A DNA stretch of 64,000 nucleotides from Escherichia coli (GTDB lineage: Bacteria > Pseudomonadota > Gammaproteobacteria > Enterobacterales > Enterobacteriaceae), in the NCBI RefSeq assembly GCF_017348835.2, contig NZ_CP071375.1, one strand, 5' to 3'. Below the pieces are notes generated by a model. It did not search any database. It was not told the origin of the DNA and was given only the letters and a program-made list of their open reading frames with translations. Position numbers and translations under genes: made by a program. Positions 55,859 through 62,604 of this stretch are shown in pieces (within the stretch, counting starts at the first letter, position 1; each line of letters opens with the position of its first letter).

Positions 55859-56629
55859 TTACTGCGCTACCCAACCGCCATCCATATTCCACGCCACCCC
55901 ACGCACTTGTGCTGCCGCATCCGAACAGAGAAACAGCGCCAGTTCACCCAGTTGTTGCGGAGTCACAAATTCACGAGAAGGCTGTTTTTCTGCCAGTAAG
56001 GCGTCACGCGCGCTTTCCGCATCTTCGCCTTGCGCAATGCGCTTATCAATCTGCTGTTGTACCAGCGGCGTCAGCACCCAGCCAGGGCAGAGCGCGTTGC
56101 AGGTAATACCCGTCTGCGCAGTTTCCAGAGCAATGGTCTTTGTGAGTCCCACCACGCCATGTTTTGCCGCAACATAAGCTGATTTGTCTTTCGACGCTAC
56201 CAGCCCATGCACAGAGGCAATGTTAATGATCCGACCCCAGTTACGAGTGCGCATTTCTGGCAGTGCCAGACGCGTGGTGTGAAAGACAGAAGAGAGATTG
56301 ATAGCGATAATGGCGTTCCATTTTTCTACAGGGAAAGATTCAACCGGGGAGACATACTGGATCCCGGCGTTATTCACCAGAATGTCCACACCGCCAAATT
56401 CCCGCCGTGCGTAGGCCATCATGTTGATAATTTGCGATTCATCGCTGAGGTCTGCCTCATGATAGCCAGGCGTTTTACCCATACGAGAAACCGCATTGAT
56501 TGCCGCGTCAACATCACCGAAGCCGTTGAGGATCACTTGCGCGCCAGCGTTTGCCAGTGTCTGAGCAATACCGAGTCCGATACCGCTGGTGGACCCCGTC
56601 ACCAGCGCAGTTTTACCTTGTAAATTCAT
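55859..56629 (-). CDS. short-chain dehydrogenase, 3-hydroxybutyrate dehydrogenase-like
   Basis: 256-aa SDR with TGSTSGIGLG cofactor motif, NNAG, catalytic Y-x3-K (YVAAK); BdhA-like length. Confidence 0.75.
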   Translation of the reverse strand: MNLQGKTALVTGSTSGIGLGIAQTLANAGAQVILNGFGDVDAAINAVSRMGKTPGYHEADLSDESQIINMMAYARREFGGVDILVNNAGIQYVSPVESFPVEKWNAIIAINLSSVFHTTRLALPEMRTRNWGRIINIASVHGLVASKDKSAYVAAKHGVVGLTKTIALETAQTGITCNALCPGWVLTPLVQQQIDKRIAQGEDAESARDALLAEKQPSREFVTPQQLGELALFLCSDAAAQVRGVAWNMDGGWVAQ

Positions 56630-56640
56630 GATGATTTTCC

Positions 56641-58032
56641 TTAGACAATGCCGGTGGTGTAGTACACGCCGATGATAAACAGCACGGCCAGACTTTTAAT
56701 GATCGTAATTGCGAAGATGCCGCCGTAAGCCTGACGGTGACTCAGCCCAGTAATTGCCAGCAGGGTGATCACAGCGCCGTTATGGGGCAATGTATCCATG
56801 CCGCCACTGGCCATAGATGCCACGCGGTGAAAAACTTCCAGTGGAATATTGGCAGCGTGCGCAGCGGCAATAAAAGTGTCGGACATAGCCGCAAGAGCAA
56901 TACTCATCCCGCCGGACGCTGAACCGGTAATTCCGGCAAGTGTGGTGATGCTGATGGCTTCGTTGAGTAATGGATCAGGAATGGCGGCCAGCGCCTTTGA
57001 GAGCACCAGAAAACCGGGTAGGGCGGCGATAACCGCACCGAAGCCATATTCTGAGGCGGTGTTCATCGCAGCCAGAATTGCGCCGCCTACCGCTGTACGG
57101 CTTCCTTCTGCCAGTCTTCCATGAATATTGCGATATCCAAAAATCACTACCAGCAAAATTCCGGCAATGAGCGCAGCTTCGACGGCCCAGATTGCGGTGA
57201 TTTTGGCGACATCTGTGGTAATCGGGGCGGCAAGTCCCGGCAACTCCAGTTGGTGGCTCGCACCGTACCAAACAGGGATCCACCAGGTAAACAACAAGTT
57301 CAACAGCCCCACCAGAATCAATGGTGAAATCGCAATGAGTGGGTTCGGTAAATTGATGTTATCTGGTGTTTCAGGTTCATTAAGTAACTCTGTGCCGTAA
57401 CCTTCATTTTTTGCCTGCGCTTTACGACGCTGCCGCTCCAGATAGATAAGCCCGACGGCAATGATAAACAGTGAACCAATAAGCCCCAGCCACGGCGCGG
57501 CCCAGGCGTTGGTGCCAAAGAAACTGGTAGGAATAATGTTCTGAATTTGTGGCGTGCCGGGCAGAGCGTCCATAGTAAAAGAGAATGCCCCCAGGGCCAC
57601 CGTTGCCGGTATAAGTCGTTTTGGGATGTTACTCTGGCGGAACAGTTCAGCCGCGAACGGATAAACGGCAAATGCCACCACAAACAGCGACACTCCGCCA
57701 TAGGTGAGTAATGCACATACCAGCACAATCACCGGAATCGCATGCCGCCGGCCGAGAATGTTGATTGCAGCAGCGACAATCGAACGAGAAAATCCTGAAA
57801 GTTCAATCAGTTTTCCGAACACGGCCCCGAGCAGAAACACCGGGAAGTACAATTTCACGAAGCCGACCATTTTTTCCATGAACAGGCCGGTAAATGCTGG
57901 GCCAACGGCCCCCGGATCGGTGACAAGAACAGCGCCTAATGCTGCGATGGGGGCAAAAAGGATAACGCTGTATCCGCGATAGGCTGCCAGCATTAGCAGC
58001 CCAAGCGCGGCAAGGGCGATTAATACACTCAT
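56641..58032 (-). CDS. GntP-family organic acid permease
   Basis: 463-aa polytopic membrane ORF with GntP-like architecture. Confidence 0.75.
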   Translation of the reverse strand: MSVLIALAALGLLMLAAYRGYSVILFAPIAALGAVLVTDPGAVGPAFTGLFMEKMVGFVKLYFPVFLLGAVFGKLIELSGFSRSIVAAAINILGRRHAIPVIVLVCALLTYGGVSLFVVAFAVYPFAAELFRQSNIPKRLIPATVALGAFSFTMDALPGTPQIQNIIPTSFFGTNAWAAPWLGLIGSLFIIAVGLIYLERQRRKAQAKNEGYGTELLNEPETPDNINLPNPLIAISPLILVGLLNLLFTWWIPVWYGASHQLELPGLAAPITTDVAKITAIWAVEAALIAGILLVVIFGYRNIHGRLAEGSRTAVGGAILAAMNTASEYGFGAVIAALPGFLVLSKALAAIPDPLLNEAISITTLAGITGSASGGMSIALAAMSDTFIAAAHAANIPLEVFHRVASMASGGMDTLPHNGAVITLLAITGLSHRQAYGGIFAITIIKSLAVLFIIGVYYTTGIV

Positions 58033-58077
58033 CGGGACTCCTCAATATCGTTGTTATAGTGGGTACAGCGAGAGAAG

Positions 58078-60862: not shown

Positions 60863-60864
60863 GG

Positions 60865-61572
60865 TCAGGCTCCTTTGCGGCTAAGGGTGCGTTGTTCAAT
60901 GCGTTTTTCAAATTGCCCCTGAATGACGCGATTAACAAAAATCCCCGGGGTATGGATAGCGGCAGGATCAAGTTCACCAAGTGGCACTATTTCTTCCACT
61001 TCCACCACGGTGATTTTTCCGGCAGCCGCCATCAGTGGGTTGAAGTTTTGCGCGGTATGACGATAAATCACGTTGCCGTACCAGTCGGCTTTCCAGCCTT
61101 TGACCAGGGCAAAATCACCGGTGATAGCCTGTTCCATGATGTACGGGCGACCGTTGAATTCGCGGACTTCTTTCCCTTCGGCAACGGGAGTACCGTAACC
61201 GGTGGCAGTAAAGAACGCCGGGATACCCGCGCCGCCTGCGCGCAGTTGTTCTGCCAGGGTTCCTTGTGGTGTGAGAATCGCCTCCAGTTCGCCGTTAAGC
61301 ACCTGTTTTTCAAACAAAGCATTCTCGCCAACATAAGAAGCGACGACTTTACGGATCTGTCGGCTTTCCAGTAGTACACCCAGTCCAAAACCATCTACGC
61401 CACAGTTATTGGAAACCACCGTTAATCCGGTTACTCCACGGTGGCGAACTTCAGCAATCAGATTCTCCGGGATGCCGCACAGGCCAAAACCTCCTGCCAG
61501 AATCGTCATCTCATTGGTAAGTCCTTCAAGTGCCTCGTGATACGTAGCGACCCGTTTATCCAACCCAGCCAT
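60865..61572 (-). CDS. 3-oxoacid CoA-transferase subunit A
   Basis: 235-aa ORF adjacent to subunit B in the usual A-then-B order. Confidence 0.88.
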
Positions 61573-61713
61573 ACAGTTGCCCTCCAGTTGTCCTTTTCAA
61601 CATCATTAAGGGCAAAAAATGATTTGTTAATTTTAAATTTGTGACTCATTCATTTGTATTATTTATCAATATAATGTTAATTAAATGTATTCAGTAGGTT
61701 AACGGAGTGCCAG

Positions 61714-62604
61714 ATGAAAATGAGCATCAAACAGTTACGCGCGTTTTTAGCGGTAGCTCACACTCTGAACTTTGCCCATGCCAGTGAACGGCTGAATATG
61801 TCGCAGCCTGCGCTAAGTCTTGCCATTAAAGGACTGGAAGATGCCTTAGGGGGCGCTTTACTGCTGCGTACTACGCGAAAAGTGACATTAACCCAGGAGG
61901 GGGAAACGCTATTGTCGATGGCACGGCCTTTGCTGGCTGACTGGGATAACACTGAGGAGGCCATGCGTCAGCGATTCACGCTCAGGCGGGGCAAAGTCTC
62001 GGTGGCAGCGATGCCGTCATTTGCAGCCAACGTTCTGCCTCCGGTGCTGAAAACCTTCCGCGATTGTTATTCAGGGATTAATGTCACCGTGCACGATGTG
62101 GTGAATGAGCAGGTGATCGAAATGGTGAGCGAAGGGCGTGTGGAGATGGGTATTGCCTTTGAACCTGACTATTGCGGCCATGTGCATTTTACCCCACTGG
62201 GCGTGGATCGGTTTGTCGCTATTGTTCCAGCCGATTCACGACTGGCAAATCGGCAACGCGTGAGTTGGCGGGATTTGCTGACGCTCGATTTTATCACCCT
62301 CCAGCGACCGTCAGCCGTCAGGTTGATGCTGGAGGAGCAGTTGGCACAAAGTGGAACGCAACTGGAAGTGGCGCTGGAAAGCCATCAACTGGTTACGGTT
62401 GGGCGGCTGGTGGCAAACGGTTTGGGAGGAAGCGCTGTGCCTGCGCTGTGCCGCAGGCAGATGAGCGAACTGGGCGCAGTGTGTCTGGAACTGGATAATC
62501 CAGTGATTGAGCGACGAGTAGGCGTACTGCGTTCGTCACACCATAAGCTTTCTACTGCGGCGCAGGCGTTGATGGAAACGTTAAAAAAAACCTATGACGC
62601 ATAA
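61714..62604 (+). CDS. LysR-family transcriptional regulator, divergent from the catabolic operon
   Basis: 296-aa ORF with N-terminal HTH (LRAFLAVAHTLNFAHASERLNMSQPALS) and LysR substrate-binding domain. Confidence 0.88.
   Translation: MKMSIKQLRAFLAVAHTLNFAHASERLNMSQPALSLAIKGLEDALGGALLLRTTRKVTLTQEGETLLSMARPLLADWDNTEEAMRQRFTLRRGKVSVAAMPSFAANVLPPVLKTFRDCYSGINVTVHDVVNEQVIEMVSEGRVEMGIAFEPDYCGHVHFTPLGVDRFVAIVPADSRLANRQRVSWRDLLTLDFITLQRPSAVRLMLEEQLAQSGTQLEVALESHQLVTVGRLVANGLGGSAVPALCRRQMSELGAVCLELDNPVIERRVGVLRSSHHKLSTAAQALMETLKKTYDA

Follow-up and report, generated by a model that had tools for sequence, protein, structure and literature searches.

The Escherichia coli chromosome NZ_CP071375.1, of which a stretch of 64,000 nt (the window) was analysed, carries a block of genes between osmC and ddpF, two genes that are neighbours in K-12, which raises the question of what these genes do and how they came to lie there. 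The answer that we consider likely is that they form an ancestral chromosomal operon, kept by some E. coli, that allows the ketone body 3-hydroxybutyrate, and probably also acetoacetate, to serve as a carbon source. A literature search found no paper on this E. coli locus.

The segment 55859-62604 is filled by six co-directional structural genes and a divergent LysR gene, all seven of which were found as open reading frames, in agreement with the preliminary description (Table 1). The structural genes are separated by gaps of 2, 9, 45, and 11 nt and by one 11-nt overlap, and this tight packing fits a single operon. The overlap joins the 3' end of the thiolase gene to the start of the gene for a HAD-family dehydrogenase; in enterics, such an arrangement would also suit a pair of enzymes acting at the CoA level. 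The adjacency of osmC and ddpF in K-12 was borne out in MG1655, where the spacer is 55 bp. Identity with K-12 ends at position 55846 of the window and restarts at 62641, so that 55847-62640 stands in place of 33 nt of K-12. The cluster segment is 100% identical in E. coli PE164, and the RefSeq product names agree. Purifying selection is strong on each of the seven genes (dN/dS 0.007-0.12).

Table 1. Features of the osmC-ddpF locus, in window coordinates.
Feature	Position	Strand	Basis or remark
osmC, flank	55393-55824	+	
22-nt perfect palindrome, GCCGGATGACG/CGTCATCCGGC	55831..55852	.	between osmC and the SDR gene, which converge
D-(R)-3-hydroxybutyrate dehydrogenase of bdhA type (SDR, 256 aa), last in operon	55859..56629	-	profiles, identity, motifs
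Polytopic permease, 463 aa	56641..58032	-	RefSeq name 'GntP family permease'
HAD-superfamily NAD-dependent dehydrogenase, 307 aa	58078..59001	-	motifs, predicted fold
Acetyl-CoA C-acetyltransferase (thiolase II, 401 aa)	58991..60196	-	profiles, residues
3-oxoacid CoA-transferase subunit B, 218 aa	60206..60862	-	TIGR02428, 327 bits (cut-off 244)
3-oxoacid CoA-transferase subunit A, 235 aa, first in operon	60865..61572	-	TIGR02429, 249 bits (cut-off 128.5)
AT-rich divergent control region	61573..61713	.	22 orthologous spacers aligned, promoter scan
SD sequence GGAGGG	61580-61585		control region
Sigma-70-like TTAACA-17-AATGAT	61630-61602	-	control region
Block unchanged between E. coli and Serratia	61615-61633		control region
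Three TTAAC motifs	61698-61702, 61676-61680, 61626-61630		control region
Imperfect dyad TTAAC-N8-GATAA	61663-61680		control region
LysR-type transcriptional regulator (296 aa), divergent from operon	61714..62604	+	LTTR models
REP-like 15-mer, GCCGGATGTCGCGTC	62626..62640	.	adjoins ddpF stop codon
ddpF, flank	62641-63567	-	

The SDR scores above two curated NCBIfam cut-offs for 3-hydroxybutyrate dehydrogenases (PRK12429, 371 bits vs. 258; TIGR01963, 343.5 bits vs. 307), contains the motifs TGxxxGIG, NNAG, and Y152xxxK156, and is 70.5% identical to the Pseudomonas putida BDH (2Q2Q) and 86.7% identical to CF3HBD of Citrobacter freundii (PDB 5YSS). Purified CF3HBD is active on 3-hydroxybutyrate and was studied as a promiscuous lactam cyclase (PMC6265244). 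That work covered the dehydrogenase alone, without the operon, regulator, permease, or HAD-family gene. Citrobacter has an identical cluster of seven genes, likewise between ddpF and osmC. In the predicted pathway, BdhA would use NAD+ to oxidise D-(R)-3-hydroxybutyrate, giving acetoacetate; this is the activity measured for the Citrobacter ortholog. By homology, a two-subunit family-I CoA-transferase would then convert acetoacetate to acetoacetyl-CoA, and the thiolase would cleave the latter into two acetyl-CoA. Subunit B of the transferase contains the SENG motif with the catalytic Glu (residues 45-48). The thiolase exceeds the cut-off of TIGR01930 (497 bits vs. 241) and falls below that of PRK05656 (673 bits vs. 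688), with Cys88, the His of GHPIGASG, and Cys380 all intact. The route from 3-hydroxybutyrate and acetoacetate to acetyl-CoA that had been predicted earlier is well supported by the SDR identity, the CoA-transferase cut-offs, and the catalytic motifs.

Like the AtoSC-atoDAEB system of E. coli K-12, the operon combines a two-subunit CoA-transferase with a thiolase for the conversion of acetoacetate to acetyl-CoA, and the proteins are paralogous (subunit A 39% identical to AtoD, subunit B 50% to AtoA, and thiolase 57% to AtoB). In contrast to the operon, Ato includes neither a 3-hydroxybutyrate dehydrogenase nor a HAD-family gene, the AtoE transporter is no relative of the operon permease, and it is controlled by a two-component system rather than by a LysR regulator. 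To our knowledge, K-12 is unable to oxidise 3-hydroxybutyrate. The pathway itself is textbook biochemistry; two of its members, a permease without a family model and an atypical dehydrogenase, are uncharacterised.

The permease would import the acid. The preliminary description assigned it to the GntP family, which agrees with the RefSeq label and with a weak colinear similarity to GntT/GntP in direct comparison, but not with the searches of Pfam, NCBIfam, and PDB sequences, where no match was found even at E<=10. Homologs with 81-94% identity occur across Enterobacterales and Pseudomonas, bdhA always adjoining, and one source names such a homolog 'D-beta-hydroxybutyrate permease'. Judging from this conserved gene context and the one database name, the protein presumably imports 3-hydroxybutyrate and possibly acetoacetate too. 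The LysR protein gave full-length matches to LTTR models, each under its equivalog cut-off, and no close solved relative was found; its orthologs show HTH_1 and LysR_substrate domains, and the divergent arrangement recurs in Citrobacter, Klebsiella, Serratia, and Pantoea. Responding to a pathway metabolite, this regulator would activate the operon from the AT-rich control region, where the motifs listed in Table 1 may be sites for LysR or RNA polymerase.

The same genes are clustered in Citrobacter, Klebsiella, Serratia, and Pseudomonas luteola. Proteins of the P. luteola cluster are similar to those of E. coli (permease 81%, SDR 75%, thiolase 68%, CoA-transferase 62-64%, and HAD-family protein 59% identical), although its gene order differs, with the HAD-family gene upstream of the regulator, which is a sigma-54 activator in place of a LysR protein. 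According to a passage of PMC13390443 citing Harris 2015, P. aeruginosa needs bdhA and the cognate regulator for growth on (R)-3-hydroxybutyrate; this Pseudomonas system (bdhA/hbdH, PA2005 type) uses a sigma-54 enhancer-binding protein, whereas the E. coli operon has a LysR. The PP_2047-2051 operon of P. putida KT2440 is induced by (R)-3-hydroxybutyrate and activated by the LysR regulator PP_2046, and its HAD gene is dispensable on the (R)-enantiomer (PMC13390443). It shares with the E. coli operon, at the family level, the LysR activator, the HAD-family gene, and the thiolase, but it contains an acyl-CoA dehydrogenase and the iron-type alcohol dehydrogenase PP_2049 and lacks a CoA-transferase and a permease.

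The remaining enzyme had been described as a 3-hydroxyacyl-CoA dehydrogenase. Its place in the HAD superfamily stands, with 3HCDH_N and 3HCDH domains and conserved catalytic residues (Ser, His140, Glu152, and Asn191), but judging from motifs and predicted fold it appears to resemble free-acid dehydrogenases more than Hbd. It falls below every NCBIfam cut-off, Hbd/HADH equivalogs included, the top model being FHMPC dehydrogenase (217 vs. 500). Two diagnostic motifs side with FHMPC dehydrogenase, not Hbd, and the Hbd-type motifs NPxPxM and HPMGP are missing from the protein as well as from 114/114 of its nearest full-length representatives. Both the motifs and the predicted fold are nearest to FHMPC dehydrogenase and L-gulonate 3-dehydrogenase. 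The protein's nearest neighbours in sequence and structure, 4OM8 (FHMPC dehydrogenase) and 3ADO and 3F3S (L-gulonate 3-dehydrogenase/lambda-crystallin), share with it the segments P-x-H-x-IP-x-x-E and G-x-[RK]-x-A-x-x-GP; being only 24-31% identical to it and acting on unrelated substrates, they mark a superfamily branch, not a substrate. Pseudomonas BdhA-type enzymes are described in a passage of PMC13390443 as strongly (R)-specific, which would leave the S-enantiomer without an enzyme. The HAD-family protein is probably a dehydrogenase for a free L-(S)-3-hydroxy acid (L-3-hydroxybutyrate), complementing the D-specific BdhA. As an optional entry enzyme, it would most likely act on the free L-(S)-enantiomer or on some related L-3-hydroxy acid, and its oxidation would give the keto acid that BdhA also yields, making both enantiomers usable. 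The Pantoea version of the operon lacks the HAD-family gene.

It is doubtful, though conceivable, that this enzyme is instead a true (S)-3-hydroxybutyryl-CoA dehydrogenase, the operon and its substrates remaining unchanged; the CoA-transferase would then first activate L-3-hydroxybutyrate, and oxidation of the product would yield acetoacetyl-CoA for the thiolase to cleave. Such a role would fit the two 3HCDH domains, the matches to Hbd structures (E 1e-39), the subfamily profile, where Hbd enzymes score only slightly lower than FHMPC dehydrogenase (298 vs. 315 bits), and the overlap of the HAD start with the thiolase stop, which is like that of a beta-oxidation pair. Sinorhizobium meliloti reportedly uses L-3-hydroxybutyrate via a CoA ester (Aneja 2002), the one bacterial route for this enantiomer for which a citation is known to us, and the 3-hydroxybutyrate-induced LysR operon of P. 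putida likewise joins a HAD gene with a thiolase. However, the scores under all Hbd/HADH equivalog cut-offs, the missing Hbd-type motifs, and one distant contig in which the HAD-family gene is translationally coupled to the permease gene all favour a free-acid dehydrogenase. For the operon as a whole, it is improbable that 3-hydroxybutyrate merely stands in for another short beta-hydroxy or beta-keto acid, such as 3-hydroxyvalerate or 3-oxovalerate, or for acetoacetate set free from a precursor such as carnitine. Promiscuity is common among CoA-transferases and thiolases of these families, and the permease, the LysR effector, and the HAD substrate are uncharacterised. Moreover, the homologous P. 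aeruginosa CoA-transferase genes were first tied to carnitine catabolism (PMC12482172). On the other hand, orthology of the SDR with assayed 3-hydroxybutyrate dehydrogenases is assigned with high confidence, the adjacency of bdhA and permease is invariable across genera, and the cluster contains no hydratase or acyl-CoA dehydrogenase. Carnitine, which the preliminary description had kept as an option, is an unlikely substrate because both a carnitine dehydrogenase match (113 bits vs. a cut-off of 414) and a beta-keto-acid cleavage enzyme (BKACE) are missing from the cluster. It is hardly credible that the operon runs reductively and serves as a sink in fermentation, making 3-hydroxybutyrate from acetyl-CoA and exporting it: in principle, each of the four enzymatic steps can be reversed, but a LysR activator of the substrate type and a bdhA-adjoining permease represent the catabolic pattern studied in Pseudomonas, and no evidence was found of enterics excreting 3-hydroxybutyrate.

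With respect to origin, the cluster is accessory in E. coli, as had been supposed: it is present in 231 of 5,426 complete genomes (4.3%), with 233/233 placements chromosomal, whereas osmC and ddpF are contiguous in 4,042 genomes. In Citrobacter, by contrast, it is core at this locus, with synteny in approximately 17 species-level genomes, and it occupies the same locus in two other Escherichia lineages. The locus is older than the Escherichia/Citrobacter split and was lost by most E. coli lineages, and one allele moved among E. coli lineages through homologous recombination. The islands of B7A and O145:H28 are 0.12% apart, their flanks 1.55%, and the E1V33 island nests inside E. coli diversity, its flanks outside. 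At depth, island and flank divergence scale together (3.0% vs. 3.7-4.3%, 7.7% vs. 11%, and 22% vs. 24%). Recent horizontal acquisition from Citrobacter, Klebsiella, or another genus by insertion between osmC and ddpF is very improbable and largely refuted. The low frequency in E. coli, an island allele more uniform than the flanks among some lineages, and REP-like 15-mers at each cluster end would fit it. They are outweighed by the 73-83% nucleotide identity between E. coli and Citrobacter cluster genes, which is the same as for flanking core genes, by the common locus and gene order, by the equal divergence of island and flanks in the divergent strain 2013C-4282 and the lineage SCPM-O-B-8794, and by independent deletions in the neighbourhood. 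Neither an integrase, tRNA, Rfam family, or IS element nor a compositional anomaly was found at the cluster, and its GC content resembles that of the flanks. The earlier term 'island' holds for accessory status, but not for a foreign insertion, given the Citrobacter/Escherichia synteny and the co-divergence with the flanks.

The 15-mer beside ddpF repeats 55831-55845, at the opposite cluster end, in direct orientation with 14/15 matches; the deletion leading to the empty allele could not be reconstructed as simple recombination between these two 15-nt repeats. The palindrome between osmC and the SDR gene, whose first 15 nt are the final bases common to the K-12 empty allele, is the same in every island-positive E. 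coli locus that was examined and is probably a bidirectional terminator.

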